Below, piece by piece: positions 6,483-47,094 of a stretch of 64,000 bases of DNA. Both the position numbers and the translations under genes were made by a program. Under the pieces are notes generated by a model. It worked only from the letters and a program-made list of their open reading frames with translations, did no database searches and was not told the DNA's origin. Source of the stretch: Candidatus Latescibacterota bacterium (GTDB taxonomy: Bacteria; Latescibacterota; UBA2968; UBA8231); contig OZ244561.1 in the NCBI GenBank assembly GCA_965217585.1, forward strand, positions 3,616,001-3,680,000. The letters are read 5' to 3'. Position 1 is the first letter of the stretch; each line of letters starts with the position of its first letter.

Positions 6483-7000
6483 TTGCGCATGCGGCTCAAC
6501 ACGCGCCGCATGCCCTCGCATAGGTTGGGCTGCTCGTGGTTGAGCGGCCCGCTCGCCGCTCGGCGAATCAGCGTCAACGCGCCCCATAGCTGGCCGTCGT
6601 TGGTCTTGAGCGGCAACACATAGCTAAAGCCTATAGACCCGCCTTCAGCCCCCTCCAGGAGGAAGCGCACCACCCCTGCTGGCAGGGGGCTTTCTTCGTC
6701 GGCGCTGGCCTGTCCCACCAGCAACAACGAGGAGTTACCGACCCCCTCCTGCTCGGTGAAGGAGCGCGCGCCGTCCTGCTCTAGCACCCGCTGCAAGACT
6801 TCAGCCCCTGCGCCGGCCGTGTGGACCACCCCTTGGCCGACGCGCTCATACACTATGGTGTCTGCCGCCTCGATGCCCAGCAGCAAATCCATGCCTTGGA
6901 CTACGGCTTCGTCCGGCGACATGGCCTCGAGCGATGCGACGATGTGCGGTGGAATTGCAGCGGGTTCGGGCATGTTGAACGGGATGATTGAGATGGGCAT
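6479..7000 (-). CDS. hypothetical protein, degenerate GAF-like domain
   Basis: C-terminal YVLPLKTNDGQLWGALTL resembles the GAF terminal strands. Confidence 0.5.
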   Translation of the reverse strand: MPISIIPFNMPEPAAIPPHIVASLEAMSPDEAVVQGMDLLLGIEAADTIVYERVGQGVVHTAGAGAEVLQRVLEQDGARSFTEQEGVGNSSLLLVGQASADEESPLPAGVVRFLLEGAEGGSIGFSYVLPLKTNDGQLWGALTLIRRAASGPLNHEQPNLCEGMRRVLSRMRN

Positions 7001-28295: not shown

Positions 28296-30470
28296 TCACA
28301 AGCTCTCCTCGATTATCGCTACCAGCGCGTCTGCATTCCCCCTGAAGCCCTCATGCTCCACGATCAGCCCTTGTAAATCAACCAAGTAATACGAAGGTAT
28401 GCCCATCACTTGGTAGGTTTTGGTTACCTCCGAGCCAGAGCCGGCCCGCACGTGGACACCTTCGATTTTGTGTTTATCAATCGCCTCTCGCCAATCGTCC
28501 TCATCCGCGTCCAGCGATATGTTGAGGAAGACGACCGGCCAGTCGGCCGTTTTTTCTTTGACTTTGCGGAGATAGGGCAGGTCGTTGATACACGGCCCGC
28601 ACCAACTCGCCCAGAAGTCGAGCAGAACCACTTGGCCCTTGAATTGGCTCAGCGATACGGACTGGCCGTCGAGGTCGTCGAGGGTAAAGTCGGGTGCGGG
28701 TTGGCCGGGTTGCAGCTTCAGGGCGGCAGCCAGAGCCACTAGGACGGCCTCATTGTATTCTGGATACGGGTTGATCTGTTGGAACTCTTCCCACTTGCGC
28801 TGGGCCCACTCAGCAAAGGCTTCACTGCGATCGTGCTTGAACCTATTGATCATCTCTCCGGCTAAAAACCAGTAGAGCACTCTCCCTTCGAGTTTTTCTT
28901 TGGCCAGATTGTAGCTAGACCCAAACCGGGGTCCTCTGTCGGCATAGATCGAGTCGAGTTGGGCTTGGACGGCTTCCGACAGCTCCAAGCCCGATAGATC
29001 GATCTTCGCCGACAGGCCGAGCGGTTGACGATGTTCGTACATCGAGTCGAGCTGAGCCTGAGCGGCTGCCGACAGTTCCAAGCTCGATAGATCGATCTTC
29101 GCCGACAGCTTGGGCGGCTCTTTGGATAGGGAATCCAACCGTACTCCAGAAGGTATGTGGAGTACCAACTCTCCGCCCGTCGTATCCGCCCTAGGCTTTT
29201 CTTCCTCACTGAACCAGTAGAAGTTGAGGGACCTATCGGACTTTTCGTACAGGGAGTCGAGTTGCGCTTGGGCGCTTTCCGCAACGCCAAACGCCGACAA
29301 ATCGTACCGCTCGGATAGCTTGAGCCATCGTCCCTCCTTTTCGTACAGGGAGTCGAGTTGCGCTTGAGCACTCGCCGAAACACCAAACGCCGACAAATCG
29401 ACCATTTTCGACAGCACGGACTGTCGTCCCTCCTTTTCGTACAGAGAGTCGAGTTGCGCTTGGGTCGCCTCCGACAATTCCAAACCCGACAAATCGTACC
29501 GCTCGGATAGCGTGGGAGATCTTTCTACGAAACCCTTCTGGTATTCCCAGCCTAGGGTGCGTTCCAGAAACCGGCGATAATGAGCTATGCCTATGGCCTT
29601 TTCGTCCACTAGGGGAAATTCCTGCAGGAAGTCGTAGTACTCCGGGGGGATGTCTCTGTTCTGGCGTCCGTTGGCAAACTGGTAACTCGTCGGGTAATTA
29701 ACCATCCTAACGGCCCACTCGTAGTTGACGTAGTCCGTCACATAGTCGATGCACCCTAAAGACAGCGCGTATTGCTCGCGTCCCTCGGCCAAGAACTCGA
29801 ACTGATCCCGCCGCCACTGTTCCATTAGGCGCTTGAAATCCTCGACCTCCAGACCCTTGTATGCGTCGCGGTCGAGGCGTAGGGAGTAGAATAGCGGGAT
29901 CCACTTGGAAGTGAAGCGGCTGTTGTCTGCGTTGGAGCCGCTGAACGAATAGGAACGGACGAAAAAGCCTTCCTCCATGGCCACGTGCAGACTGTCGCCG
30001 GGTTCGACGAAGAGAGTTAGGAATCTGTGCTCGAAAAAGAACGATCCTAACCACCTGTGCTCGAAAAGGAACGATCCTAACCACTGTACCCATTGCCATC
30101 TCGGTTCCCCGCCTTCGAAATACCCCCAGACGAGGGTCCCTCGGACGACGGGCAGCTCAAGGGCGAAGCGATCCAAGCTGTCGAGCGTGACGCGCTGCTC
30201 AGAGCTTTCCAGCGCCGACGGCGATTCGTATCTAAATGTGATTTTCCGCGAGCGAGGATCTTGGACTTCGCCGGTGATGATCACAACCGATGGCTGGCTC
30301 TGAGTACTGTCTGCGTCCAAACGAGGACTCGCTACCATGCTTTCGCTGCTCACCATGGTAGGCGTTGCGGGACTCTCCTGGGCCGCCCAGCCCTCGGCGA
30401 AATCCCACGTTAAGTCAGAGACTCCGTGTGGAGCGGCCACCAACAACATTGCAAAGAGAACGCGGCGCAT
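28296..30470 (-). CDS. TlpA-family oxidoreductase with five internal helical repeats (copy 2)
   Basis: DFWASWCGPC; LFVEPGDSLHV N-domain; 5x LS...DLS.L.LS...QAQLDSLY; FG-GAP-type signal peptide. Confidence 0.85.
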   Translation of the reverse strand: MRRVLFAMLLVAAPHGVSDLTWDFAEGWAAQESPATPTMVSSESMVASPRLDADSTQSQPSVVIITGEVQDPRSRKITFRYESPSALESSEQRVTLDSLDRFALELPVVRGTLVWGYFEGGEPRWQWVQWLGSFLFEHRWLGSFFFEHRFLTLFVEPGDSLHVAMEEGFFVRSYSFSGSNADNSRFTSKWIPLFYSLRLDRDAYKGLEVEDFKRLMEQWRRDQFEFLAEGREQYALSLGCIDYVTDYVNYEWAVRMVNYPTSYQFANGRQNRDIPPEYYDFLQEFPLVDEKAIGIAHYRRFLERTLGWEYQKGFVERSPTLSERYDLSGLELSEATQAQLDSLYEKEGRQSVLSKMVDLSAFGVSASAQAQLDSLYEKEGRWLKLSERYDLSAFGVAESAQAQLDSLYEKSDRSLNFYWFSEEEKPRADTTGGELVLHIPSGVRLDSLSKEPPKLSAKIDLSSLELSAAAQAQLDSMYEHRQPLGLSAKIDLSGLELSEAVQAQLDSIYADRGPRFGSSYNLAKEKLEGRVLYWFLAGEMINRFKHDRSEAFAEWAQRKWEEFQQINPYPEYNEAVLVALAAALKLQPGQPAPDFTLDDLDGQSVSLSQFKGQVVLLDFWASWCGPCINDLPYLRKVKEKTADWPVVFLNISLDADEDDWREAIDKHKIEGVHVRAGSGSEVTKTYQVMGIPSYYLVDLQGLIVEHEGFRGNADALVAIIEESL
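30025..30084. repeat. in-frame 30-bp tandem duplication
   Basis: Encodes WLGSFLFEHR-WLGSFFFEHR; absent from the sister TlpA. Confidence 0.85.
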
Positions 30471-30530
30471 TGTTTACCTCCAGAGTTTGTGGTCGTGCGG
30501 TTTAGCTTCCTCATCTCCAAGCCCTATCGC

Positions 30531-32660
30531 CTATTCGAGTTTGACCATTTTGCGGGAGTGCGTCTGCTCGTCCACCTGCAAGCGATACACATAGACTCCG
30601 GCGGCGACGGGGCGACCCTGCGCGTCTCGGCCATCCCAAGTTAGCTGGTGCTCGCCAGCGGGCAGCGGACCCGTCCACACTCGGCGCATCGGCTGCCCTA
30701 GGACGTTGTAGATGGTTAAGTCCACGTTCTTAGCGCCGGCGGGTACGGCCAAGGGGATGGTTGTGGCGGGATTGAACGGGTTGGGATAGTTGGCACCGAG
30801 GGCAAAGGTCGTTGGCGTGGCTGCCGTCTCGCTGGCTACGGCTGTGGCCGGAGTGCCTTGGTTGATAAAGACGAAGACGCCGCCGTGGTCGCTTGTCGGA
30901 CTTGTTCCCAGCACGACCAGATCGGTGTCGCCATCGCCGTTGACATCGCTGGCGAGCACCTGATTGCCCTCGCTTGGCAGGGGGTAGTAGCCTTCGAGGA
31001 CGGGTGCGCCGTTGCGCTGGCCGAGCAGCACCACCAGCGCCGGACCGACGGTCGAGTTGCCAGCGATCATGGCCACATCCAGTACGCCATCGCCGTTGAC
31101 ATCGCTGGCGGTGGCCTCTGACGGGAGCACCTTCCAGTCGAGCAAGGAATGGCGTGCCAATCCGCCGGAGGCATCCAGACGCCACAGAGCCAAGCCGTAG
31201 TAGTCGAATTCGAATTCGCGGAACGGATCTATGCTCTCGGAGGAGCCGAGTAGATCCACCATTCCATCGCCATCAAAGTCGGCCAGTAGATGAAGGCCAC
31301 AAGGATTGATCGGGGCCGCAAAAGAGAGCGGCGGTTCCTCGATGGCGGCCCACGGCTGGGTCAGTTGCCAAAAGTCTTGATCTTGAGGCTCAAAGCAGCT
31401 CCCATTCCACAATAGGCTCGCAGCTTCGCCGAGGGGTTGTACGGTGGGCAGCCAGGAAAAGATGAGCCCCTCCTCGCTGCCGAGGACGAAGGTATCGCTA
31501 TTGACAAAGTCGTAGCCGTCGTTGATCCACATAATCACTTCTTGGTAAAGAATATCGCCGACCAACAAGTCCACATCGCCGTCGCCGTCGCCATCGGCCA
31601 AGCGAAGGAGCCAGACATCGAACAGTTGCAAAATGGGATCAAAGCCGCCGCCCCAGTTGTACCACACTTCGACGGTCCCCCCCCATCGGTCTTCAACGAC
31701 CAAATCGAGGAGTCCATCGCCGTCGAAGTCGCTTCCCTGGAGGTTCATGCTTGGAGGGTCTTCAGCGGGTTCGGTTGAGAGGAGGAACTCTTGGGTGGGT
31801 TCAAAGCCGCCTAGTCCGTCGTTGGACGCCACAATCCAGCCCAGTTGTCTTTCGCGGTCCACGAGGCGGTGCCAGGCCGCCACGAGATCCGCGTCGCCAT
31901 CGCCATCTACATCGCCCACCGCTCCGAACGATTCTTCCCGGTGGCCTTGCACAATGCTTGGGATGCCGATGCCCTCGCCGAGCGGAAAAAAGTCGGGTTC
32001 GGCGAACAGCGCACCAGGCGGCCCCAACCCCACACCGAGATCCCGAGGCGACAATTCTCCTTGCGCCAGCTCTTCGGCTCCCGTGAGCTGGATCCAGTCT
32101 ATTTCTAAAAACTTGGGATGGTTGTCTATATCCCAAGAGTCTCGGTATAACATCATGTCTATACTGATAGTATAGAGGGTGTCCTGCCAGATGATCTCCC
32201 GCTCTTGGTCTGCTGCCAAGGCGCGTGGATCTAGGGTGATTTCTTCCCATTCGATGGGATAGGGTTGCAGACCTGTCCCCGTGACACTAGGCCTCTCTTT
32301 AGGGTCTTTAGGGTGGCGTCTTTGCTCGGCGTTAGACCAGTACATCTTGAGTGGCCCCTCAGTGGGGCTATGGTGGATGAGGCGCAGCCGTAGGGTGAGG
32401 CGGTCGAACAGGGCCGAGTCTTGACCAATTAGCGGCGCGCGCAATTCAACAGTGGGTCTGCGACCCGGTACCGGCGCAATGCGCCAGACGCCATCGACGA
32501 TTTCGGTCTGTAGTGGGTCGTTACTGCCTAGTTTGTTGCTATAACTAGCACTTTCCAGGGCGGTCCAGCCCCAGGTGGAGCCGTCGTCGAAATCCCACGT
32601 TAGGGCAAAGGCTCCGCATGGAGCGGCCACCAATAGAATTGCAAAGAGAACGCGGCGCAT
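30531..32660 (-). CDS. FG-GAP repeat surface protein (copy 5)
   Basis: Same architecture as 26114-28210. Confidence 0.85.
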   Translation of the reverse strand: MRRVLFAILLVAAPCGAFALTWDFDDGSTWGWTALESASYSNKLGSNDPLQTEIVDGVWRIAPVPGRRPTVELRAPLIGQDSALFDRLTLRLRLIHHSPTEGPLKMYWSNAEQRRHPKDPKERPSVTGTGLQPYPIEWEEITLDPRALAADQEREIIWQDTLYTISIDMMLYRDSWDIDNHPKFLEIDWIQLTGAEELAQGELSPRDLGVGLGPPGALFAEPDFFPLGEGIGIPSIVQGHREESFGAVGDVDGDGDADLVAAWHRLVDRERQLGWIVASNDGLGGFEPTQEFLLSTEPAEDPPSMNLQGSDFDGDGLLDLVVEDRWGGTVEVWYNWGGGFDPILQLFDVWLLRLADGDGDGDVDLLVGDILYQEVIMWINDGYDFVNSDTFVLGSEEGLIFSWLPTVQPLGEAASLLWNGSCFEPQDQDFWQLTQPWAAIEEPPLSFAAPINPCGLHLLADFDGDGMVDLLGSSESIDPFREFEFDYYGLALWRLDASGGLARHSLLDWKVLPSEATASDVNGDGVLDVAMIAGNSTVGPALVVLLGQRNGAPVLEGYYPLPSEGNQVLASDVNGDGDTDLVVLGTSPTSDHGGVFVFINQGTPATAVASETAATPTTFALGANYPNPFNPATTIPLAVPAGAKNVDLTIYNVLGQPMRRVWTGPLPAGEHQLTWDGRDAQGRPVAAGVYVYRLQVDEQTHSRKMVKLE

Positions 32661-32720
32661 TGTTTACCTCCAGAGTTTGTGGTCGTGTGGTTTAGATTTC
32701 TCAGCTTCAAGCCCTGTCGC

Positions 32721-34826
32721 CTATTCGAGTTTGACCATTTTGCGGGTGCGCGTCTGGTCGTCCACCTGCAACCGATACATATAGACTCCGGCGGCGACGG
32801 GATGGCCCCGCGCGTCGCGGCCATCCCAAGTCAGCTCGTGCTCGCCAGCGGGCAGCGGCCCCGTCCACACTTGGCGCATCGGCTGCCCTAGGACATTGTA
32901 AATGGTTAAGTCCACGTTCTTGGCTCCGGCGGGTACGGCCAAGGGGATGGTTGTGGCGGGATTGAACGGGTTAGGGTAGTTGGCACCGAGGGCAAAGGCC
33001 GTTGGCGTGGTCGCCTCGGCCGCTACGGCGGTGGCCGGGGTGCCTTGGTTGACCAAGACGAAGACGCCGCCGAGGCCGCTTGCCGGATTCGTTCCCAGCA
33101 CGACCAGATCGGTGTCGCCATCGCCGTTTACGTCGCTGGCGAGCACCTGATTGCCCTCGCCGGGCAGGGGGTAGTAGCCTTCGAGGACGGGCACGCCATT
33201 GCGCTGGCCGAGTAATACTACCAATGCCGGACCGACGGTCGAGTTGCCAGCGATTAGGGCCACATCCAGCACGCCATCGCCGTTGAGGTCACTGGCGCTG
33301 GCCACTGACGGGAGCACCTTCCAGTCGAGCAAGGAATCGCGCGTCCACCCGCCGGAGGCGTCCAGACGCCACAGGGCTAAGCCGTAGTAGTCGGTGTTGC
33401 CAAGGAACGTATCTATGCTCTCATGGGAGCCGAGTAGGTCCACCATCCCATCGCCATCGAGATCGGCCCGCAGGTGCAGAGCACAGGGATTGACCACGGC
33501 CTCGACAGTGAGCGGCGGTTCTTGGACGGCGGCCCACGGCCGAGTCAGTTGCCAGGAGTTTTGGGAATCATAACAGGATCCGTTCCACAATAGGGTCGCG
33601 GCTTCGCCGAGGGGTTGCCCGGCGGATAGGTAGGCCCAGCGCGACTCCTCGCTGCCGAGGACGAAGGTATCGCTATCGACAAAGTCGTAGCCGTCGTTGA
33701 TCCACATAATCACTTGGGACGGAGCATCGCCAACCAACAAGTCCACATCGCCGTCGCCGTCGCCATCGGCCAAGCCAACGAGCGCGACGCCGGACAGTTG
33801 CAGGGTGGGATCAAAGCCGCCGCCCCAGTTATACCACAGTTCGACGATCCCCCTTTCGGCAGTGACCAAATCGAGGAGTCCATCGCCGTCGAAGTCGCTC
33901 CCCCGGAGGTCATTAAATGGACCATACTCAGAAGAGGGTATGGTTGAGAGGGGGACCTCTTGGGTGGGCTCAAAGCGGCCTAGCCCGTCGTTGGACGCCA
34001 CCGTCCAGCCCAGTTGTATTTCGCGGTCCATGAGGCGGTTCCAGAGCACCACGAGATCCGCATCGCCATCGCCGTCTACGTCGCCCACCGCGCCGCGCGA
34101 TCTTGGCCGACTGCTTTGCCAAATGTCTGGGGCACCGATGCCTTCGCCTAGCGGAAAAAAGTCGGGTTCGGCGAATAGCGTGCCGGGCGGCCCCAACTCC
34201 ACACCGAGATCCTCTGGCGACAATTCCCCCTGCGCCAACTCTTCGGTCCCTGTGAGCTGGATCCAGTCTAGTTCTAAAAACTTGGGATGGTTGTCCACGT
34301 CCTGCGAGTCCCGATATAACAGCATGTCTATCTGAAAATTGAAGAGGGTATCCTGCCAGGTGATCGCCCATTCTGTGTCTGCTTCTGCCAAGGCGCGTAG
34401 ATCTACGGTGATGTCTTCCCATTCGAGGGGATAAGATTGAGTACGGCCCGTACAAAGCAGCCCGTTTGTGCCAGAGTCAGAGAGGCGTCTGTACGCGGCG
34501 TTGGACCAGCATATCGAGAATAGTTCCTCGGTGGGGCTATGGTGTATGATGCGCAGCCGGAGGGTGAGGCGGTCGAACAGAGCCGAGTCTTTGCCGATCA
34601 ACGGCGAGCGCAATTGAACGGTGGGTCTGCGACCCGGCACGGGCGCAATGCGCCAGACGCCATCGACGATTTCGCTGTGTAATGGCTCTCTACTACCTCT
34701 TATATTGCTATCATCACCTTCCCGGGCGGTCCAGCCATAGGTAGAGCCGTCGTCGAAATCCCACGTTAGGGCAACCGCTCCGCGCGGAGCGAGCAACAAT
34801 AAAATTGCCAAGAACATGTAGCGCAT
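32721..34826 (-). CDS. FG-GAP repeat surface protein (copy 4)
   Basis: Same architecture as the other copies. Confidence 0.85.
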   Translation of the reverse strand: MRYMFLAILLLLAPRGAVALTWDFDDGSTYGWTAREGDDSNIRGSREPLHSEIVDGVWRIAPVPGRRPTVQLRSPLIGKDSALFDRLTLRLRIIHHSPTEELFSICWSNAAYRRLSDSGTNGLLCTGRTQSYPLEWEDITVDLRALAEADTEWAITWQDTLFNFQIDMLLYRDSQDVDNHPKFLELDWIQLTGTEELAQGELSPEDLGVELGPPGTLFAEPDFFPLGEGIGAPDIWQSSRPRSRGAVGDVDGDGDADLVVLWNRLMDREIQLGWTVASNDGLGRFEPTQEVPLSTIPSSEYGPFNDLRGSDFDGDGLLDLVTAERGIVELWYNWGGGFDPTLQLSGVALVGLADGDGDGDVDLLVGDAPSQVIMWINDGYDFVDSDTFVLGSEESRWAYLSAGQPLGEAATLLWNGSCYDSQNSWQLTRPWAAVQEPPLTVEAVVNPCALHLRADLDGDGMVDLLGSHESIDTFLGNTDYYGLALWRLDASGGWTRDSLLDWKVLPSVASASDLNGDGVLDVALIAGNSTVGPALVVLLGQRNGVPVLEGYYPLPGEGNQVLASDVNGDGDTDLVVLGTNPASGLGGVFVLVNQGTPATAVAAEATTPTAFALGANYPNPFNPATTIPLAVPAGAKNVDLTIYNVLGQPMRQVWTGPLPAGEHELTWDGRDARGHPVAAGVYMYRLQVDDQTRTRKMVKLE

Positions 34827-34922: not shown

Positions 34923-37001
34923 TCACAAGCTCTTCTCGATCGTCGCTACAGTCGCGTCTGTATTCCCCCTGAGGCCATGATGCTCCACGATCAGCCCTTG
35001 GGAGTCCACCAAGTAATACGAAGGTATGCCACTCACTTGGTAGGTTTTGGCTACCTCCGCATTCCAGCCGTCCGCCCGCACGTGGACGCCTTTGATCTCG
35101 TGTTTATCAATCGCCTCTCGCCAATCAGCCTCATCCGCGTCCAGCGATATGTTGAGGAAGACGACCGGCCAGTCGGCCGTTTTTTCCTTGACTTGGCGGA
35201 GATAGGGCAGGTCGCCGATACACGGCACGCACCAACTCGCCCAGAAGTCGAGCAGAACCACCTGCCCCTTGAACTGGCTCAGCGATACGGGTTGGTCGTC
35301 GAGATTAGGGAAGGTGAATTCGGGCGCGGGTTGTCCGGGTTGCAGCTTCATAGCTCTATCCAGAACCGCTTGGACGGCCTCATTGTACTCTGGGTGCGGG
35401 TTGATCTGCTGGAAATCTTCCCACTTGCGCTGGGCCGCTGCAAAGCCTGCACTGCCACTGCGCTTGAGCGTATTGATCAGCTCTCCGGCTAAAAACCAGT
35501 AGAGCACTCTCCCTTCCAGTTTTTCTTTAGCCAGATCGTATCTAGTAGGCCCAAACCACTGTCCGCTTTCGGCATAGATCGAGTCGAGTTGCGCTTGGGC
35601 GGCGTCCGCCAGCCCCAAGCCCGATAGATCGATCTTCGCCGATAGCTCGAGCGGTTGACGATGTTCGTACAGGGAGTCGAGTTGCGCTTGGGCGGCGTCC
35701 GACAGCCCCAAGCCCGACAGATCGATCTTCGCCGACAGCTTGGGAGGCTCTTTGGCGAGGGAATCCAACCGTACTCCACGAGGTATGTAGAACACCAACG
35801 CTCCGTCCGTCGTATCCGCCCTAGGCGACTTCTCTTCCTCACTTAATAACGGGTAGATGTTAAGGGACCTAGCGGACTTTTCGTACAGAGAGTCGAGTTG
35901 CGCCTGGGCACTCGCCGAAACACCAAACGCCGACAAATCGTACAGTTCGGACAGCTTGAGCCATCGGCCATCCTTTTCGTACAGGGAATCAACCTGGGCT
36001 TGGGCACTCGCCGAAACACCAAATGCCGACAAAGCGACCATTTTCGACAGCACGGGCTGGCGGCCGTCCTTTTCGTACAGGGAGTCGAGTTGCGCTTGGG
36101 TCTCCTCCGATAACTCCAAACCCGATAGATCGTACATCTTGGACAGCTTGGGGTTATCGTCATGGTCATGGTCTTCTCCCCAGCCGAGGGTGCGCTCCAG
36201 AAACCAGCGATATTGGGCTACGCCTATGGCCTTTTCGTCCACTAGGGGAAACTCCTGTAGGAAGTCGTAGTACTCCGGGGTGATGTCTCTGTTCTCGCGT
36301 CCGTTGGCAAACTGGTAGTTCGTCGGGTAATTAAACATCCTATTAGCCCACTCATAGTTGACGTAGGCCGTCACATAGTCGATGCACCCTGAAGACAGCG
36401 CGTATTGCTCGCGCCCTGCGGCCAAGGACTCGAACTGATCCCGCCGCCACTGTTCCATTAGGCGAGAAAACTCTTCTAACTCCAGACCCTCGTATTCGAG
36501 GCGTAAGGGGTGGGATCGCGGGCTCCACTTGGAAGTAAAGCGGCTGTTTTCCGCGTTGGAGCCGCTGAACGAGTAGGAAGGACCGAAAAAGCCCTCCTCC
36601 ACGGCCACGTGCAGACTGTCGCCGGGTTCGACGAAGAGCGTTAGGGAATTGGGATCAGAGAAGAAGGCGTCTAGCCACTGCACCCATTGCCATCTCGGCT
36701 GCCTGCCTTCGAAATACCCCCTGACGAAGGTCCCTCGGACGACAGGCAGCTCAAAGGCGAAGCGATCTAGGCTGTCGAGCGTGACGCGCTGCCCGGAGCC
36801 TTCCAGCGCCGCCGGCGATTCGTACCTAAATGTGATTTCCCGCGAGCGAGGATCCTGGACTTCGCCGGTGATGATCGCAACCGATGGCTGGTTCTGAGCG
36901 CTTTCTGCAGCCAGATCAACACTCGACGCCATGATTTCGCTGTGCACTGAGGCTCCGTGTAGAGCCGCCAACAATCCAATCGCTAAGAGAATGCGGCGCA
37001 T
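34923..37001 (-). CDS. TlpA-family oxidoreductase with five internal helical repeats (copy 1)
   Basis: DFWASWCVPC; start MRRILL after GGAGG; paralog of 28296-30470. Confidence 0.85.
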   Translation of the reverse strand: MRRILLAIGLLAALHGASVHSEIMASSVDLAAESAQNQPSVAIITGEVQDPRSREITFRYESPAALEGSGQRVTLDSLDRFAFELPVVRGTFVRGYFEGRQPRWQWVQWLDAFFSDPNSLTLFVEPGDSLHVAVEEGFFGPSYSFSGSNAENSRFTSKWSPRSHPLRLEYEGLELEEFSRLMEQWRRDQFESLAAGREQYALSSGCIDYVTAYVNYEWANRMFNYPTNYQFANGRENRDITPEYYDFLQEFPLVDEKAIGVAQYRWFLERTLGWGEDHDHDDNPKLSKMYDLSGLELSEETQAQLDSLYEKDGRQPVLSKMVALSAFGVSASAQAQVDSLYEKDGRWLKLSELYDLSAFGVSASAQAQLDSLYEKSARSLNIYPLLSEEEKSPRADTTDGALVFYIPRGVRLDSLAKEPPKLSAKIDLSGLGLSDAAQAQLDSLYEHRQPLELSAKIDLSGLGLADAAQAQLDSIYAESGQWFGPTRYDLAKEKLEGRVLYWFLAGELINTLKRSGSAGFAAAQRKWEDFQQINPHPEYNEAVQAVLDRAMKLQPGQPAPEFTFPNLDDQPVSLSQFKGQVVLLDFWASWCVPCIGDLPYLRQVKEKTADWPVVFLNISLDADEADWREAIDKHEIKGVHVRADGWNAEVAKTYQVSGIPSYYLVDSQGLIVEHHGLRGNTDATVATIEKSL

Positions 37002-37062: not shown

Positions 37063-39237
37063 CTATTCGATTTTGACCATTTTGCGGGTGCGCGTCTGCT
37101 CGCCCACCTGCACCCGATACACATAGACTCCAGCGGCGACGGGGTGGCCTTGTGCATCTCGGCCATCCCAAGTCAGCGCGTGTTCGCCGGCGGGCAGCGG
37201 CCCCGTCCACACGTGGCGCAGCGGCTGCCCCAAAACATTGTAGATGGTTAAGTCCACATTTTTGGCTCCGTTGGGCACGGCCAAGGGGATGGTTGTGGCG
37301 GGGTTGAATGGATTGGGGTAGTTGGCCCCGAGGGCAAAGGCCGTTGGCGTGGTCGTCTCGTCAGCTACGGCCGTGGCTGGGGTGCCTTGGTTGATAAAGA
37401 CGGAGACGCCGCCGAGGTCGCTTGCAACGCTCGTTCCTAGCACGACTAGATCGGTGTTGCCATCGCCGTTCACGTCGCCGGCGAGTACTTGACTGCCTTT
37501 GCCTGGGAGGGGGTAGTAGCCTTCGAGGACGGGTATGCTGTTGCGCTGGCCGAGCAACACCACGAGTGCCGGACCGACGGTCGAGTTGCCAGCGACCATA
37601 GCCACATCCAGCACGCCATCGCCGTTGAGGTCGCTGGCGCTGGTCACTGACGGGAGCACCTTCCAGTCGAGCAGGGTGTCGCGCGTCCACCCGCCGGAGG
37701 CGTCCAAACGCCACAGGGCCAAGCCGTAGTAGTCGGTTTCAAGGAACGTATCTATGCTTTCGGGGGAGCCGAGTAGGTCCATCGTTCCATCGCCATCGAG
37801 GTCGGCCAGCAGGTGCAGGGCGCAGGGATTGATCGGGGCCTCAAAAGAGAGCGGCGGTTCTTGGGTGGCGGCCCACGGCTGGGTTAGTTGCCAGGAGCTT
37901 TGGGACTCAAAGCAGGATCCGTTCCACAACAGGCTTGCAGCTTCGCCCAAGGGTTGCCCGGCGGACAGGTAGGCCCAGCGCGCCTCCTCCCAAGGCGTCT
38001 CCTCGCTGGCGAGTCCATGCTCATCCGTCTCTTCGCTGTGTACCTCATTGCTGTCGAGAGCGAATCTATCGTCGAGGACGAATCTATCACTGTTGACAAA
38101 GTCGTAGCCGTCGTTGATCCACATAATCACTTGGGACGGAGCATCGCCGACCAACAAGTCCACATCGCCGTCGCCGTCGCCATCGGCCAAGCCAACGAGC
38201 GAGACGCCGGACAGTTGCAGGGTGGGATCAAAGCCGCCACCCCAGTTGTACCACACTTCGACGATTCCGCCTTCGGCAACGACCAGATCTAGGAGTCCAT
38301 CGCCGTCGAAGTCGCTTCCCCAGAGATAAAAGAATGGAGTATAGTCAGAAGAGGGTGTGGTTGAGAGGGGGACCTCTTGGGTGGGTTCAAAGCTGCCTAG
38401 CCCGTCGTTGGACGCCACCGTCCAGCCCAGTTGTCTTTCGCCGTCCACGAGGCGGTTCCAAGCCACCACGAGATCCGCATCGCCATCGCCGTCCACGTCG
38501 CCCACTGCGCCGTGCGATTCTTGCGAACTGCTTTGCCAACGGCTTGGGATGCCGATGCCCTCTCCGAGCGGAAAAAAGTCGGGTTCGGCAAACAAGGTGC
38601 CGGGCGGCCCCAACTCCACACCGAGATCCCTAGGCGACAATTCCCCCTGCGCCAACTCTTCGGCCCCTGTGAGCTGAATCCAGTCTAGTTCTAAAAACTT
38701 GGGATGGTTGTTCACGTCCTGAGAGTCTCGGTATAACATCATGTCTATACGAATAGTATAGAGGGTATCCTGCCAGATGATCTCCTGCTCTGGATATGCT
38801 TCTACCAAGGCGCGTAGATCTACGGTGAGGTCTTCCCATTCGAGGGGATAGGGTTGAAGATCTCTCCACGTGCTAGACCTCCCTTTAAGGAGGCGTCTTC
38901 TCTCGGCATTGGACCAGTACATCCAGAATGGTCCCTCGGTGGGACTGTGGTGTATGAGGCGCAGCCGTAGGGTGAGGCGGTCGAACAGGGCCGAGTCTTT
39001 GCCGATCAACGGCGAGCGCAATTGAACGGTGGGTCTGCGACCAGGCACGGGCGCAATGCGCCAGACGCCATCGATGACTTCGCTGTGTAGTGGTTCGCGA
39101 CTGCCTGATTTATTGGTATAAGTGGAGCTTTCCCGGGCGGTCCAGCCCCAAGTGGAGCCGTCGGCGAAATCCCACGTTAGGGCAAAGGTTCCAAATGGAG
39201 CCGCCAACAATAGAATTGCAAAGAGAAAACAGCGCAT
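37063..39237 (-). CDS. FG-GAP repeat surface protein (copy 3)
   Basis: Same architecture plus an acidic insert DRFVLDDRFALDSNEVHSEETDEHGLASEETPWEE. Confidence 0.85.
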   Translation of the reverse strand: MRCFLFAILLLAAPFGTFALTWDFADGSTWGWTARESSTYTNKSGSREPLHSEVIDGVWRIAPVPGRRPTVQLRSPLIGKDSALFDRLTLRLRLIHHSPTEGPFWMYWSNAERRRLLKGRSSTWRDLQPYPLEWEDLTVDLRALVEAYPEQEIIWQDTLYTIRIDMMLYRDSQDVNNHPKFLELDWIQLTGAEELAQGELSPRDLGVELGPPGTLFAEPDFFPLGEGIGIPSRWQSSSQESHGAVGDVDGDGDADLVVAWNRLVDGERQLGWTVASNDGLGSFEPTQEVPLSTTPSSDYTPFFYLWGSDFDGDGLLDLVVAEGGIVEVWYNWGGGFDPTLQLSGVSLVGLADGDGDGDVDLLVGDAPSQVIMWINDGYDFVNSDRFVLDDRFALDSNEVHSEETDEHGLASEETPWEEARWAYLSAGQPLGEAASLLWNGSCFESQSSWQLTQPWAATQEPPLSFEAPINPCALHLLADLDGDGTMDLLGSPESIDTFLETDYYGLALWRLDASGGWTRDTLLDWKVLPSVTSASDLNGDGVLDVAMVAGNSTVGPALVVLLGQRNSIPVLEGYYPLPGKGSQVLAGDVNGDGNTDLVVLGTSVASDLGGVSVFINQGTPATAVADETTTPTAFALGANYPNPFNPATTIPLAVPNGAKNVDLTIYNVLGQPLRHVWTGPLPAGEHALTWDGRDAQGHPVAAGVYVYRVQVGEQTRTRKMVKIE

Positions 39238-39289
39238 AGGATCACCTATAGGATTTTGGTCGTTTTGACGCCCTGTAGGTTAAGATACT

Positions 39290-39305
39290 TGCACATTCCG
39301 TGCCA
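39290..39305 (-). promoter_or_regulatory. sigma54 -24/-12 promoter (internal copy)
   Basis: Minus strand TGGCACGGAATGTGCA (GG-N10-GC), ~50 bp before the ATG; IHF-like TTTCAATTCTTTA at 39346-39358. Confidence 0.8.
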
Positions 39306-39424
39306 AATGTCAGACCGCTCATAAAAAAATCCTTCAGGAGTACCCTAAAGAATTGAAAATATAGTAGTTAAAAACGTGAATTTATTTTTCCTAGGCGTTG
39401 CGCCTGCCGTCGGTGCAAGGTTTT

Positions 39425-39489
39425 CCACGTTTTTCCGTGGATTTTCCACGACTTTCCGTGAACTTCCACGACTTTCCGTGTTGGCCACG
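39425..39489. promoter_or_regulatory. phased palindrome array B (putative bEBP upstream activating sequence)
   Basis: Alternating CACG/CGTG half-sites at 39426, 39436, 39447, 39457, 39467, 39477, 39486. Confidence 0.65.
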
Positions 39490-39539
39490 CCGCCAAGAAG
39501 CCCGCCGGAATGTGGCTTTATTCAATGTGCTCAACTCGT

Positions 39540-41672
39540 CTATTCGATCTTGACCATTTTGCGGGTGCGCGTCTGATCGTCCACCTGCAACCGATACACA
39601 TAGACCCCAGCGGCGACGGGTTGACCCTGCGCGTCTCGGCCATCCCAAGTTAGCTGGTGCTCGCCGGCTGGCAGCGGCCCCGTCCACACTTGGCGCATCG
39701 GCTGCCCCAGCATGTTGTAGATGGTTAGGTCCACGTCCTTGGCTCCGGCGGGCACGGCCAAGGGGATGGTTGTGGCGGGATTGAACGGGTTGGGGTAGTT
39801 GGCACCGAGGGTAAAGGTCGTTGGCGTGGATGCCTCGGCGGCTACGGCTGTGGCCGGGGTGCCTTGATTGGTCAAGACGAAGACGCCGCCGTGGCCGCTT
39901 CCGGGACTGGTTCCCAGCACGACCAGATCGGTGTCGCCATCGCCGTTGACATCGCCGGTGAGCACCTGATTGCCCTCGCCGGGCAGGGGATAGTAGCCTT
40001 CGAAGGCGGGTAATCCATTGCGCTGGCCGAGCCACACCACCAGCGCCGGACCGACGGGCAAGTTGCCAGCGACCATGGCCACATCTAGGAGTCCATCGCC
40101 GTTGAGGTCGCTGGCGGTGGCTATGTGCGACGAGAGGGCCTTCCAGTCGAGCAAGGAATGGCGTGTCCACTCGCCGGAGGCGTTCAGACGCCACAGAGCC
40201 AAGCCGTAGTCGTCGGTGCCGAAGTTCGTCTCTATGCGCTCGGGGGAGCCGAGTAGGTCCACCGTCCCATCGCCATCGAAGTCGGCCAGCAGGTGCAGGG
40301 CGGAGGGATGGACCGGAGCTTCTACAGCGAGCGGCGGTTCCTGAACGGCTGCCCACGGCCGGGTCAATTGCCAGGATTGGGGCTTGCAGAGTCGCTGCCC
40401 GCAGGGTCGGAACCACAACAGGCTGGCGGCTTCGCCGAGGGGTTGCCCGGCGGGTAGGAAGGGATAGAAGCGCTTCTCCTCGCTGTCGAGGACGAATCTA
40501 TCGCTACTGACAAAGCCGTAGCCGTCGTTGATCCACAAGGTCACGTAATACGATACGCCGTCATACTCCATGACTACGAGATCCGCATCGCCGTCGCCCT
40601 CGCCATCGGCCAAGCCAAGGAGCCAGACCTCGGACAGTTGCAGGATCGGATCAAATTCGTCGCCCCAGTTGTACCATACTTCGACACTCCGGCCTTCATT
40701 AACGACCAGATCCAGGAGTCCATCGCCGTCGAAGTCGCTTCCTCGCAGGGCAATGAGTGGAATGGAGACACGAGAGTATGTGGATACGGTTGAGAGGGAG
40801 ATCTCTTGAGTAGGTTCAAAGCGGCCTAGCCCGTCGTTGGACGCCACGATCCAGCCCACTTGTACTCTTTGTGTTTTGAGGTCTATGTAGCGGTCCCAGG
40901 CCACCACGAGATCCGCATCGCCATCGCCGTCCACGTCGCCGACCGCGCCGCGCGAGTCATCCGGCCAGTCTGGAGAGCCGATAGGCCCTCCGAAGGAGAA
41001 AAAGTCGGGCGCGGCGAACAACGTGCCGGGCGGTCCTACTTCCACCGCGATATCCCTAGGCGACAATTCTCCCTGCGCCAACTCTTCGGCCCCGGTTAGC
41101 TGGATCCTGTCTATTTCTAAAAACGTTGGAGGGTTATCTAGCTCCTGAGAGCGCTCATATAAGAACATGGTTATATGAAAATTAAAGAGGGTATCCTGCC
41201 AGGTGACCGCCCGCTCTGGGTCTGCTGCCAAGGCGCGTAGATCTACGGTGATGTCTTCCCATTCGAGGGGATAGGATTGAGGACGTTCCGAACGAAATCT
41301 CGCTCTATTTACGCTATAGTCAGTGCGGCGACTGTACTTGACATTGGACCAGTGCATCCAGAAGAACCCCTCGATGGGGCTATGGTGTATGAGGCGCAGC
41401 CGTAGGGTGAGGCGGTCGAACAGGGCCGAGTCTTCGCCGATTGACGGCGAGCGCAATTGAACTTTGGGTCTTTGATCAGGCACTAGCGCCATGCGCCAGA
41501 CGCCATCGACGACTTCGCTGTGTAGTGGGGCGTTAGTGCCTTCTACATTGACATTAATAGTAGTTGCCCGGGCGGTCCAGCCCCAAGTGGAGCCGTCGGC
41601 GAAATCCCACGTTAGGGCGACCGCTCCGCGTGGAGCGACCAACAGTAGAATTACAAAGAGCGTATAGCGCAT
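39540..41672 (-). CDS. FG-GAP repeat surface protein (copy 2)
   Basis: Same architecture; start MRYTLF; the most divergent copy. Confidence 0.85.
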   Translation of the reverse strand: MRYTLFVILLLVAPRGAVALTWDFADGSTWGWTARATTINVNVEGTNAPLHSEVVDGVWRMALVPDQRPKVQLRSPSIGEDSALFDRLTLRLRLIHHSPIEGFFWMHWSNVKYSRRTDYSVNRARFRSERPQSYPLEWEDITVDLRALAADPERAVTWQDTLFNFHITMFLYERSQELDNPPTFLEIDRIQLTGAEELAQGELSPRDIAVEVGPPGTLFAAPDFFSFGGPIGSPDWPDDSRGAVGDVDGDGDADLVVAWDRYIDLKTQRVQVGWIVASNDGLGRFEPTQEISLSTVSTYSRVSIPLIALRGSDFDGDGLLDLVVNEGRSVEVWYNWGDEFDPILQLSEVWLLGLADGEGDGDADLVVMEYDGVSYYVTLWINDGYGFVSSDRFVLDSEEKRFYPFLPAGQPLGEAASLLWFRPCGQRLCKPQSWQLTRPWAAVQEPPLAVEAPVHPSALHLLADFDGDGTVDLLGSPERIETNFGTDDYGLALWRLNASGEWTRHSLLDWKALSSHIATASDLNGDGLLDVAMVAGNLPVGPALVVWLGQRNGLPAFEGYYPLPGEGNQVLTGDVNGDGDTDLVVLGTSPGSGHGGVFVLTNQGTPATAVAAEASTPTTFTLGANYPNPFNPATTIPLAVPAGAKDVDLTIYNMLGQPMRQVWTGPLPAGEHQLTWDGRDAQGQPVAAGVYVYRLQVDDQTRTRKMVKIE

Positions 41673-41697
41673 AGTTTTTCTCCAGCGGTCGGCTCGC

Positions 41698-43797
41698 TTA
41701 TTCGATTTTGACCATTTTGCGGGCGTGTATCTGCTCGTCCACCTGCAACCGATACAAATAGACTCCGGCGGCGACGGCTCGGCCCTGCGCGTCGTGGCCA
41801 TCCCAAGTTAGCTGGTGCTTGCCGGCGGCCAGCGGCCCCGTCCACACGTGGCGGATCGGCTGCCCCAAGACATTGTAGATGGTTAAGTCCACGTTCTTGG
41901 CTCCGGCGGGCACGGCCAAGGGGATGGTCGTGGCGGGATTGAATGGGTTGGGATAGTTGGCACCCAAAGCAAAGGTCGTTGGCGTGGCTGCCGTCTCGCT
42001 GGTCACGGCGGTGGCCGGGGTGCCTTGGTTGGTCAAGACGAAGACGCCGCCGTGGCTGCTTTCGGGACTCATTCCCAGCACGACCAGATCGGTGTCGCCA
42101 TCGCCGTTGACATCGCCGGTGAGCGCTTGACTGCCTTCGCCTGGGAGGGGGTAGTAGCCTTCGAGGACGGGCGCGCCGTTGCGCTGGCCGAGCAACACCA
42201 TCAGTGCCGGACCGATGGTCGAGTTGCCAGCGACTAGGGTCACATCCAGCACGCCATCGCCGTTGAGGTCGCTGGCGGTGGTCACTGGTGAGAGCACCCT
42301 CCAGTCGAGCAAGGAATGGCGTGTCCACTCGCCGGAGGCGTCCAGACGCCACAGGGCCAAGCCGTGATTGACGACACCCAAGAACGTCTCTATGCGCTCG
42401 GGGGAGCCGAGTAGGTCCACCGTCCCATCGCCATCGAGGTCGGCCAGCAGGTGCAGGTCACAGGGATTGACCGGGGCTTCGAAAAAGAGCGGCGGTTCTT
42501 GGACGGCCGCCCACGGCCGGGTCAGTTGCCAAAAGTCTTGGGGCTGATAGCAGGGTCGCATCCACAACAGGCCCGCGGCTTCGCCCAAGGGTTGTCCGGC
42601 GGGCAGCCAGGGGAAGCGCGCCTCCTCGCTGTCGAGGACGAAGGTATCGCTGTGGACAAAGTCGTAGCCGTCGTTGGTCCACAGGCTCACTTGGGACGCA
42701 GTGTCGGAGACCAACAGGTCCACATTGCCGTCGCCGTCGCCATCGGCCAAGCCAACGAGCCAGACATCGGACAGTTGCAGGGTAGGATCAAAGCCGCCGC
42801 CCCAGTTGTACCACAGTTTGACGGTCAGGCCTTTGCCAACGGCCAGATCTAGGAGTCCATCGCCGTCGAAGTCGCTTCCCCACAGGTCCATGATTGAAAA
42901 GGAGTCAAAGAAGGATGTGTAGGTTGAGAGGATGACCTCTTGAGTGGGTTCAAAGCGGCCTAGCCCGTCGTTGGACGCCACCGTCCAGCCCTGTTGTCTT
43001 TCGCCATCCACGAGGCGGGTCCAGAGTACCACGAGATCCGCATCGCCATCGCCATCCACGTCGCCCACCACGCCTTGCGCTTTTTCCCAATAGCCGCCTG
43101 GGAAGCCGACGGTCCCACCGAGGGGGAAAAAGTCGGGTTCGGCGAACAAGGTGCCGGGCGGCTCCAACTCCACCGCGAGATCCCCAGGCGACAATTCTCC
43201 CTGCGCTAACTCTTCGGCTCCCGTTAGCTGGATCCAGTCTATTTCTAAAAACTTTGGATGGTTGTCCACGTCTTGCGAGTCCCGATATAACATCATGTCT
43301 ATACGAAAAATGAAAAGGGTATCCTGCCAGGTGATCGCCCATTCTGTATCTGCTTCTGCCAAGGCGCGTAGATCTACGGTGATGTCTTCCCATTCGATGG
43401 GATAGGGTTGAAGACGTCCCGTAGCAAATACTCCTCTTGTGTCAGAGGGAGGGCGACGTCTGTTCTCGGCATTGGACCAGCTCATAAGGAAGTCCCCCTC
43501 GGTAGGACTATGGTGTATGAGGCGCAGCCGAAGGGTGAGGCGGTCGAACAGGGCCGAGTCTTTGCCGATCCACGGCGAGCGCAATTGAACGGTGGGTCTG
43601 CGTCCAGGCACGGGCGCAATGCGCCAGACGCCATCGACGACTTCGCTGTGTAATGGCTCTCTACTACCTCTTGCATTGCTATAATCACCTTCCCGGGCGG
43701 TCCAGCCATAGGTGGAGCCGTCGGAGAAATCCCACGTTAGGGCAACCGCTCCGCGTGGAGCGACCAACAATAGAACTGCAAAGAGCATGTAGCGCAT
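41698..43797 (-). CDS. FG-GAP repeat surface protein (copy 1)
   Basis: Same architecture; first gene of the array. Confidence 0.85.
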   Translation of the reverse strand: MRYMLFAVLLLVAPRGAVALTWDFSDGSTYGWTAREGDYSNARGSREPLHSEVVDGVWRIAPVPGRRPTVQLRSPWIGKDSALFDRLTLRLRLIHHSPTEGDFLMSWSNAENRRRPPSDTRGVFATGRLQPYPIEWEDITVDLRALAEADTEWAITWQDTLFIFRIDMMLYRDSQDVDNHPKFLEIDWIQLTGAEELAQGELSPGDLAVELEPPGTLFAEPDFFPLGGTVGFPGGYWEKAQGVVGDVDGDGDADLVVLWTRLVDGERQQGWTVASNDGLGRFEPTQEVILSTYTSFFDSFSIMDLWGSDFDGDGLLDLAVGKGLTVKLWYNWGGGFDPTLQLSDVWLVGLADGDGDGNVDLLVSDTASQVSLWTNDGYDFVHSDTFVLDSEEARFPWLPAGQPLGEAAGLLWMRPCYQPQDFWQLTRPWAAVQEPPLFFEAPVNPCDLHLLADLDGDGTVDLLGSPERIETFLGVVNHGLALWRLDASGEWTRHSLLDWRVLSPVTTASDLNGDGVLDVTLVAGNSTIGPALMVLLGQRNGAPVLEGYYPLPGEGSQALTGDVNGDGDTDLVVLGMSPESSHGGVFVLTNQGTPATAVTSETAATPTTFALGANYPNPFNPATTIPLAVPAGAKNVDLTIYNVLGQPIRHVWTGPLAAGKHQLTWDGHDAQGRAVAAGVYLYRLQVDEQIHARKMVKIE

Positions 43798-43851
43798 AAG
43801 ACTGCCTCCAGAGTTTTTGGTCGTTTTGACGCCCTGTTAGGTTGAGATACT

Positions 43852-43867
43852 TGCACGTTCCGTGCCA
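43852..43867 (-). promoter_or_regulatory. sigma54 -24/-12 promoter (leader copy)
   Basis: Minus strand TGGCACGGAACGTGCA; IHF-like TTTCAATCCTTTA at 43908-43920; the region 43797-43979 duplicates 39237-39418. Confidence 0.8.
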
Positions 43868-43998
43868 AATATCAGACCACGCATAAAAAAATCCTTCAGG
43901 AGTATCCTAAAGGATTGAAAATATAGTAGTTAAAAGCGTGAATTTATTTTTCTAGGCGTTGCGCCTGCCGTCGTTGCAATTAGACATGTGAAAAATTT

Positions 43999-44052
43999 CG
44001 TATTAAATACGAATCTTCCGTATTAGATACGATTTTTCCCGTATTAAATACG
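43999..44052. promoter_or_regulatory. phased palindrome array A (putative bEBP upstream activating sequence)
   Basis: CGTATTAAATACG (43999), CGTATTAGATACG (44019), CGTATTAAATACG (44040); 20-21 bp period. Confidence 0.7.
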
Positions 44053-44115
44053 ATCTGGCTGCGGTCCCTCCTTTTTTAAAGAATCGGTCGCCGAGCGCAT
44101 AGTCCCCCTACATCC

Positions 44116-47022: not shown

Positions 47023-47094
47023 TGCGTCTCCTTTGCGGTTTAGTACGGGCAAACTAGCGGGCAAACATATTGGCGGCGCGGATTTTTATCAAAT

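Follow-up and report, generated by a model that had tools for sequence, protein, structure and literature searches.

How can two promoters with almost the same core sequence, set in one row of related genes, be addressed by different activators? This question is raised by a stretch of 64,000 nucleotides from a Candidatus Latescibacterota bacterium (assembly GCA_965217585.1, contig OZ244561.1, forward-strand positions 3,616,001 to 3,680,000), which as a whole we call the window; features in it are numbered from its first letter, and loci elsewhere are given by their genome coordinates. Seven genes for predicted exported proteins, copies 1 to 7, lie here on the minus strand, and near-identical stretches upstream of copy 1 (promoter 1) and copy 3 (promoter 2) each carry a sigma-54 promoter beneath a different enhancer array, array A and array B. 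A sequence-only reading of the window had proposed that two bEBPs (bacterial enhancer-binding proteins) of shifted specificity independently turn on the two halves of this row. We find support for this proposal in the recurrence of the two arrays beside different bEBP genes of the same genome and in a genus-wide covariation between the half-sites of such arrays and the DNA-recognition helix of the neighboring bEBP. We think it likely that copies 1-2 and copies 3-7 form separate transcription units with a hairpin as insulator between them, and that different sensor bEBPs activate them in trans through arrays A and B.

Two core promoters and their enhancer arrays

Aligned from the start codon, the sequences preceding copy 1 (43797-43979) and copy 3 (39237-39418) match with hardly a gap as far as TTGCA(A/C)CGACGG, where the identity ends; over 165 nt they are 93% identical (BLASTN), and the module as a whole measures roughly 180 bp. 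Both copies carry TGGCACGGAA(C/T)GTGCA, a sigma-54 box that matches 15 of the 16 consensus positions, with GG at -24, GC at -12 and the canonical spacing (TGGCACG-N4-TTGCW). The pattern TGGCAC-N5-KTGCW occurs twice in the 64-kb window where 0.12 matches are expected, and a count of two is reached by one in 100 shuffles. Upstream of the shared part each module has an array of its own (Table 1). The two arrays have one format, namely six half-sites alternating every 10-11 bp, a site period of 20-21 bp and a position 118-185 bp from the -24 box; both are inverted-repeat upstream activating sequences (UASs) at the usual distance of about 80-200 bp, phased on one face of the helix. On all of these points (the repeated core of some 180 bp, the -24/-12 box in both copies, and the coordinates, motifs, 20-21-bp period and 120-185-bp distance of two different arrays) the sequence-only reading was correct. 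A small inverted repeat, AGGCG-CAA-CGCCT, is also present in both window copies of the module.

Between array and box lies a hairpin followed by a T run (Table 1). It was noticed earlier as an IHF-like site, and the sequence in question, TTTCAATCCTTTA, is indeed present, with one mismatch (position 2) to the integration host factor (IHF) consensus WATCAA-N4-TTR; the element itself forms the 5' arm of a hairpin that is conserved and terminator-like. A terminator scan flags both window copies, and the stem is 11-12 bp long. We collected 103 distinct copies from the genus, which are mutually related and may include a few false matches: a run of T5-T7 (two T's that close the stem, continued by another 4-6) follows the hairpin in 91 of them, and on the sense strand cells of G-U type outnumber those of A-C type by 53 to 12, with double compensatory changes at a few positions. 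The distance from hairpin to box is fixed at 24-25 nt in all 10 copies of the module in this genome, and the box distance is conserved in about 100 genus copies. A role as a general terminator throughout the genome was considered and rejected, all 11 good genomic copies of the hairpin belonging to this module family.

Because a conserved stem-loop is followed by a T run, the hairpin looks like an intrinsic terminator. It would end the transcript that arrives from upstream (from a bEBP gene, or from copies 1-2) after the enhancer has been crossed and 24-25 nt before the -24 box, and a terminator-like element at this place, between UAS and box, would put the enhancer into the 3' untranslated part of the upstream gene. 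IHF or HU could in addition bend the DNA at the A/T-rich surroundings of the hairpin. Read 5' to 3' on the gene strand, the module consists of a UAS of three dimer sites, a spacer of ~60 bp, the hairpin with its T run and the sigma-54 box.

Both junctions between array and core are bridged by short contigs from coded runs. Those from X1-X3 are identical to 39159-39516, and at the other junction X2 and X3 give matches to 43944-44144 and 43922-44145. Runs X1-X3 may be source samples of the assembly, and their matches therefore check the assembly and do not count as independent support. Contigs of X1, X2, X3 and X5 also hold a joined form that runs from 39489 to 44116 and skips 4626 bases, so that the end of the M16 peptidase gene abuts the region just upstream of array B. 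The sides of this join are short (21-30 nt, 90% likeness), and it probably comes from related strains with an arrangement like that of the sister genome G011 described below, or from repeats.

Activators, recognition helices and their sites

The genome, a single 7.32-Mb contig, contains rpoN (Sigma54_DBD, 205.6 bits, in a 491-aa frame; C1:10142-10615), and a PF00158 profile search of the whole genome returns 24 matches, 21 of them strong (full bEBPs) and none within the window. Both rpoN and bEBPs are thus present, as the sequence-only reading presupposed, and its statement that the window lacks a bEBP gene holds. A genome search for copies of the conserved palindrome that have a sigma-54 box no more than 70 nt away yields ten modules. 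Six of them lie 20-310 nt past the stop of bEBP genes of ~1040 aa, forming cassettes of activator gene and module; one more large bEBP, the seventh, is encoded at 3233 kb and lacks a module. Each cassette precedes FG-GAP/FlgD_ig, PD40 or redoxin-type exported-protein genes. Modules of this family normally follow the stop codon of a bEBP gene directly; the two in the window stand without a bEBP of their own, and the window is thus the place where the system, with its activators encoded elsewhere, has its largest cluster of targets. Although their positions range over 0.8-6.85 Mb, all 10 modules share the minus strand with their bEBP and target genes.

The large bEBPs share one domain order (Pfam): Reg_prop repeats making two propellers, Y_Y_Y, Sigma54_activat, the AAA lid and a Fis-type helix-turn-helix (HTH). 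The two that we read, at 821 kb (820853-824008) and 6834 kb (6833966-6837091), match Sigma54_activat with E about 1e-67 to 1e-69 and have no visible signal peptide or transmembrane segment; we take these bEBPs to be cytoplasmic. HTH_8 scores 21.8 bits (cut-off 22) in the 6834-kb protein and falls below the listing threshold in the 821-kb protein, though the HTH aligned there. The bEBPs of the module family are 64-90% identical to each other, and the large bEBPs stay below the cut-offs of all named NCBIfam equivalogs.

Which of these activators goes with which array? The palindrome CGTAT-N3-ATACG occurs at 7 places in the 7.3-Mb genome, three of them in the window, three at 820751-820804 and one isolated. 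The second triplet lies 50-100 nt past the stop of the 821-kb bEBP gene, and no other place in the genome has one. Triplets of CACG-N6-CGTG are likewise limited to three places: the window, 6833903 (directly after the 6834-kb bEBP gene, in what we call the 6833 module and cassette) and 6854141 (beside a bEBP remnant). The genome scan that the sequence-only reading had proposed thus pairs array A with the 821-kb gene only and array B with the 6834-kb gene and the 6854 remnant; judging by these counts, neither array is due to chance. Local alignment scores, computed separately for arrays and cores, give the same pairing. Window module A scores 42 in the array and 32 in the core against the 821 module, window module B scores 42 and 19 against the 6833 module, and the two window modules score 10 in the array and 60 in the core against each other; the window modules are mosaics, in which arrays and cores differ in their nearest relatives. 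Genome-wide, the best match of array B is the array beside the 6834-kb bEBP (score 42), followed by the 6854 remnant (36).

The pairing extends to the DNA-binding domain. We collected 94 bEBP C-termini from 31 genomes of the genus, 74 of which have a module within 460 nt. In these 74 pairs the arrays fall into non-overlapping groups according to the central residue of the second HTH helix, taken with the pair that precedes the final Gly. All 31 proteins with the helix LRSRM (Ser) adjoin CGTAT/ATACG half-sites; the helix LRYRM.KH goes with TCGTTC repeats in 15 of 16 pairs, and the 27 pairs with LRYRM.KY comprise 23 with CGTG[G/T]/CCACG, two with a TGTGG variant and two with other motifs. The base that follows CGT in the half-site, in other words, tracks the residue in the middle of the recognition helix throughout the genus; the HTHs of solved structure nearest to the large bEBPs are NifA (9qq6_C, E 7e-4) and 2m8g, which places the variable residue inside that helix. 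Array A of the window falls in the Ser (CGTAT) class and array B in the Tyr..KY class, and at least four site classes coexist in this one genome, beside their activators.

Helix and array are neighbors on the DNA, and some co-inheritance is expected; we therefore built a tree from the 75 residues that precede the helix (72 rows). The Ser/Tyr class changes 12 times on the best tree, well-supported branches require at least two of these changes, and in all 72 rows the site class goes along with it. A clear example is L197, a protein with CGTAT sites and Ser in its helix that falls within a supported clade of proteins with a Tyr helix and TGTGG sites. Among A-type arrays the half-sites persist and the linkers vary. 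Orphan arrays retain six intact half-sites of one class beside diverged linkers and flanks, and this is a stronger argument for reading by a bEBP than the covariation on the tree. On the combined evidence, the 821 bEBP and perhaps one at 6797 kb are candidate readers of array A, and three bEBPs, those at 6808, 6833 and 6842 kb, of array B, so that each array would correspond to a class of bEBP rather than to a single one.

Relatives and the probable array swap at promoter 1

BLASTN detects the core module in 18 of the 24 other genus genomes (as many as 17 matches in one genome) and in none of 16 genomes from three other families. In the closest relative, the sister genome G011, the match is 89% identical over the full 184-nt query. 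The locus there is syntenic, with the M16 peptidase, a promoter, one FG-GAP gene, a second promoter and orthologues of copies 3 and 4 (88% and 87-89% identity). Both of its promoters have B-type arrays; G011 nonetheless encodes an A-type bEBP of its own, accompanied by an A array. The expectation that the arrays are conserved in relatives therefore stands for array B at promoter 2 and fails at promoter 1, where the enhancer differs between the sister genomes. The A-array pattern occurs in 11 of the 31 genus genomes, nine of which have it at a single place, beside a bEBP gene. Away from a bEBP it is found only in the genome of the window and in G019, which has four A-array places, one beside a bEBP and one, on inspection, without a bEBP C-terminus immediately upstream.

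How did promoter 1 come by its array? Array A and the A-type spacer next to it are homologous to the 821-kb cassette and are joined to a copy-3-type core within the shared CGACGG, and G011 has B-type arrays at both orthologous promoters; for these reasons promoter 1 of the window appears to have acquired array A by a recombinational enhancer swap. The sequence-only reading had called the two arrays re-coded, with motifs that differ by a symmetric base change. Re-coding in place through such point changes we reject, as the arrays differ in site geometry and in spacer, and each has a closer homologue elsewhere in the genome. A conserved CCTTGC(G/A)CCGACGG-like element directly follows the array of every module (39405-39420 and 43965-43979 in the window), and the junction of the array swap falls here.

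Several other cassettes are incomplete. The module at 3791 kb (3791300-3792100) keeps the hairpin and a perfect sigma-54 box, has no enhancer array, and is joined by a deletion to a truncated bEBP that retains some of the propeller and, of the AAA+ domain, the first third; the module at 6854 kb sits behind a mere C-terminal bEBP remnant. A decayed module at 6845900-6846110, directly upstream of the bEBP gene 6842759-6845872, comprises what is left of a bEBP stop region, a single CACG-N6-CGTG site, a spacer, a hairpin with T6 and a degenerate sigma-54 box, which suggests tandem cassettes in which the terminator alone was retained. In the cassette of the 6808-kb bEBP (6806395-6808181, L031) the first FG-GAP paralog is split into frames of 231 and 451 aa that align with the family's N- and C-terminal parts, probably as a frameshifted gene. 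Short frames of 60-90 aa that match only the bEBP HTH region occur in many genomes of the genus; these may be remnants or small Fis-like competitors for the enhancers.

The large propeller-bEBP form is common in the genus and the family, with full-length matches in several genera of f1, and in other families we find matches to its C-terminal half in frames of ~1060-1150 aa. A wider contig search with the 6834-kb bEBP returned generic bEBP AAA+ matches from many phyla and no close relatives among the best 80 of 602.

The proposed switch, its alternatives and its setting

We propose the following picture. Array A, with its CGTAT half-sites, would be the cognate site of the Ser-helix bEBP at 821 kb, and array B, with its CGTGG/CCACG half-sites, that of the Tyr..KY-helix bEBPs, with the best match at 6834 kb. 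Three dimers of one bEBP class would occupy the three phased sites and come together as a hexamer, which would loop to the sigma-54 holoenzyme at the -24/-12 box and open the promoter, while signal sensing by the propeller domains would decide which bEBP is active. Copies 1-2 would follow the 821-kb bEBP and copies 3-7 the 6834-kb bEBP, possibly also the 6808 and 6842 bEBPs; the hairpin and T run would stop transcription from upstream and may also help to bend the DNA. More tentatively, and with rather less confidence than we place in the switch itself, we suggest that the lineage has evolved plug-and-play orthogonal sigma-54 channels, in which cassettes multiply, helix and half-site change in matched fashion and whole arrays recombine onto an unchanged core. 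The proposed code for the base after CGT would pair Ser with A, Tyr..KY with G and Tyr..KH with T, through a change of one or two helix residues.

A number of observations weigh against this picture. The sigma-54 contact loop of the 821-kb bEBP (P0002) is GSFTGA, not the GAFTGA of its 6834-kb paralog; for 20 of the 94 bEBP C-termini no module lies within 460 nt; and between the window copies and the FG-GAP paralog of the 6833 cassette identity is only 31-40%. The class of array B is common to three intact bEBPs, the helix being identical in 6808 and 6833 and different by one residue in 6842, so that cross-talk is possible, and a Ser-helix bEBP at 6797 kb likewise belongs with CGTAT-type sites. 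Helix and array lie less than 150 bp apart and are inherited and recombined together, possibly as a single block; their covariation could therefore partly reflect linkage and is by itself no proof of selection, only two independent switches fall on well-supported branches, and a sign test on the supported pairs gives p 0.5. One could thus hold that both sigma-54 promoters are real and that the paralogous bEBPs cross-bind or act from solution, making the row one regulon and the array difference a neutral by-product of recombination. The mutual identity of the bEBPs fits this, as do the CGT/ACG core and the A-rich GAAAAT-type linker that are common to all half-sites. We nevertheless consider a single regulon improbable, in view of orphan arrays that retain six intact half-sites of one type despite diverged linkers and flanks, the 69 of 74 pairs in which classes are not mixed inside an array, and a sister genome that differs only in the array at promoter 1.

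Somewhat less remote, though still unlikely, is the view that the palindrome between enhancer and promoter is a protein site, for IHF/HU or for a common dimeric regulator, and not a terminator, in which case the two halves of the row would not be insulated. The fit of TTTCAATCCTTTA to the IHF consensus at all but one position, the A/T-rich tract that precedes it and three HU/IHF-family genes in the genome all suit such a site; so would the high conservation of the stem sequence, which goes far beyond the needs of pairing, and hairpin B is weak as a terminator by both folding energy and z score (Table 1). The T run in 91 of 103 copies, the predominance of G-U-compatible changes among one-sided substitutions on the sense strand and the terminator scan, which flags both copies, argue for termination instead, and the two roles do not exclude each other. 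It is, finally, very improbable that the arrays are bound chiefly by small stand-alone Fis-type HTH proteins or bEBP-derived HTH remnants acting as competitors or repressors. Many frames of 70-90 aa across the genus do match the bEBP HTH region (for example 2758406-2758645 in this genome), and a 62-aa remnant at 6854208-6854324 lies directly upstream of a B-type array. Since sigma-54 promoters require an AAA+ activator, however, such proteins could modulate activation and not replace it, and the arrays stand at the classical UAS distance, have the three-dimer format and adjoin full-length bEBP genes in 6 of the 10 modules. We accordingly keep to two units, each activated by its own bEBP class, as the likely arrangement.

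The genes of the region all lie on the minus strand and follow one another, from high to low coordinates, as an M16/PreP-type peptidase, the array A module, copies 1-2, the array B module and copies 3-7 (Table 1). The peptidase gene (982 aa, M16C/PreP-like, 44116-47064, minus strand) lies directly upstream of array A and is the same neighbor in G011. Copies 1, 2, 3, 5 and 6 are FG-GAP proteins with 66-79% mutual identity and FlgD_ig matches in all five; copies 4 and 7 make up a second family, with a ResA/TlpA-like thiol-disulfide oxidoreductase end. The C-terminus of copy 1 scores 32.9 bits against TIGR04183 (cut-off 23) and thus has a sorting domain of the Por_Secre_tail kind, as used by the type IX secretion system (T9SS). 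The longest open reading frames of copies 2 and 4 run into the preceding gene, and signal-peptide-like MR..LL.. starts are found 25 and 61 nt past the preceding stops. Because the gaps in the region of copies 3-7 are ~60 nt and terminator-like sites there are not above chance, copies 5-7 probably form one transcription unit with copies 3-4. The expectation that co-regulated FG-GAP paralogs are mutual closest relatives was rejected: the paralog of the 821 cassette is 71-77% identical to every window copy, and the low identity of the 6833-cassette paralog noted above implies that regulator class does not track target similarity.

Table 1. Positions of the promoter elements and genes in the window (numbered from its first letter).
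Feature	Position	Strand	Description
Enhancer array A	43999..44052	-	three 13-bp palindromes CGTAT-N3-ATACG at 43999, 44019 and 44040; 20-21 bp apart
Spacer of A-type cassettes	43980..43998	-	junction to copy-3-type core just downstream, in TTGCAACGACGG; similar to the AATTTTTTAGATCAACTTGTAACGA spacer that A-type cassettes of other genomes carry
Hairpin (12 pairs, loop 3) + T7	43883..43916	-	contains IHF-like TTTCAATCCTTTA; terminator scan; -20.5 kcal/mol, z -5.7
Sigma-54 -24/-12 box TGGCACGGAACGTGCA	43852..43867	-	predicted start ~43841
Copy 1	41698..43797	-	FG-GAP_3, FlgD_ig; T9SS type A sorting domain; signal-peptide-like N-terminus
Copy 2	39540..41672	-	FG-GAP/T9SS-tail paralog; start set at internal MRYTLF..., 25 nt past copy 1 stop
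Enhancer array B	39424..39488	-	alternating CACG and CGTG half-sites, one per 10-11 bp; interpreted as three dimer sites of CCACG-N6-CGTGG type, 21-bp period
Hairpin (12 pairs with G-U, loop 3) + T7	39321..39354	-	terminator scan; -13.1 kcal/mol, z -1.9; placed to end the copy 1-2 transcript before promoter 2
Sigma-54 -24/-12 box TGGCACGGAATGTGCA	39290..39305	-	predicted start ~39279
Copy 3	37063..39237	-	FG-GAP/T9SS-tail paralog; 88% identity to gene 2 of sister genome G011
Copy 4	34923..37001	-	separate family; C-terminal ResA/TlpA-like thiol-disulfide oxidoreductase domain
Copies 5, 6 and 7	28296..34826	-	5 and 6: FG-GAP/T9SS tail; 7: redoxin type

How does this arrangement compare with known systems? 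Sigma-54 promoters in general depend on an AAA+ activator, and control here is of this classical enhancer-dependent kind, with bEBPs that are ordinary in their AAA+ and HTH parts. In the classical IHF-assisted promoters (NtrC/glnAp2, XylR/Pu, NifA/nifH) a UAS at about -100 to -200 is followed by an A/T-rich or IHF-like element and the -24/-12 box. The window modules show the same succession, except that their intervening element is a hairpin with a T run, resembling an intrinsic terminator. The sensor module, two Reg_prop propellers with Y_Y_Y, is shared with the hybrid two-component systems of Bacteroides, in which a periplasmic Reg_prop/Y_Y_Y sensor is coupled to kinase, receiver and AraC-type output domains; the bEBPs described here, in contrast, have no visible signal peptide or transmembrane segment, and their output is AAA+ plus a Fis-type HTH. 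Among known activators, NorR recognizes sites of the form GT-N7-AC and NifA sites of the form TGT-N10-ACA.

The closest parallel to the array format is NorR/norVW of E. coli, a sigma-54 promoter with three upstream inverted-repeat bEBP sites, all three of which, according to PMC2831303, are needed for ATPase activity and open-complex formation; by analogy, the three dimer sites of the window arrays would suit one hexamer. Our bEBPs differ from NorR in having Reg_prop and Y_Y_Y propeller sensors and no GAF domain (Pfam), the sensor that holds a non-haem iron centre in the NorR family, in their site sequences, and in forming many paralogous pairs of bEBP and array where NorR forms one. With an NCBIfam NorR score of 321 against a cut-off of 476 the bEBP is no member of the NorR family, though the enhancer may work similarly. 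As in the NifA, VnfA and AnfA system of Azotobacter, where paralogous bEBPs with distinct enhancers and related Fis-type HTHs are reported to send sigma-54 to different promoter sets (PMC9542535), paralogous activators serve different sites here; in this genome, unlike Azotobacter, at least four site classes each stand beside an activator gene, and the same core promoter is reused with exchanged enhancers.

Literature searches combining Latescibacteria with sigma-54, two component regulator propeller with sigma-54, and Latescibacterota with type IX secretion returned no paper, and in the literature on bEBPs, upstream activating sequences, recognition helices and paralogs we found no such cassette family among the papers listed, judging from titles and the opening parts of abstracts. 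In the literature searched, then, the following seem to be undescribed: the cassette as a unit, a terminator placed between the enhancer and its promoter, the presence side by side of at least four site classes that follow a simple residue-to-base pattern, and the exchange of an enhancer on a conserved core between sister genomes.

Enhancer control by sigma-54 is itself textbook knowledge, while the insulation of paralogous bEBPs and the rewiring of their regulons are known for only a few cases. Here one genome offers at least four site classes, a candidate residue-to-base rule, and promoters without a bEBP of their own at which the enhancer differs between sister genomes, so that a few DNA-binding domains and reporters would suffice to test specificity and rewiring directly. 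The same pairs of activator and enhancer are candidates for orthogonal parts in synthetic sigma-54 circuits. If the proposal is true, it would amount to a simple natural recognition code for Fis-type bEBP domains together with a documented case of bacterial enhancer swapping, and it would offer a first view of how the large families of FG-GAP proteins with T9SS tails are regulated in an uncultured phylum.

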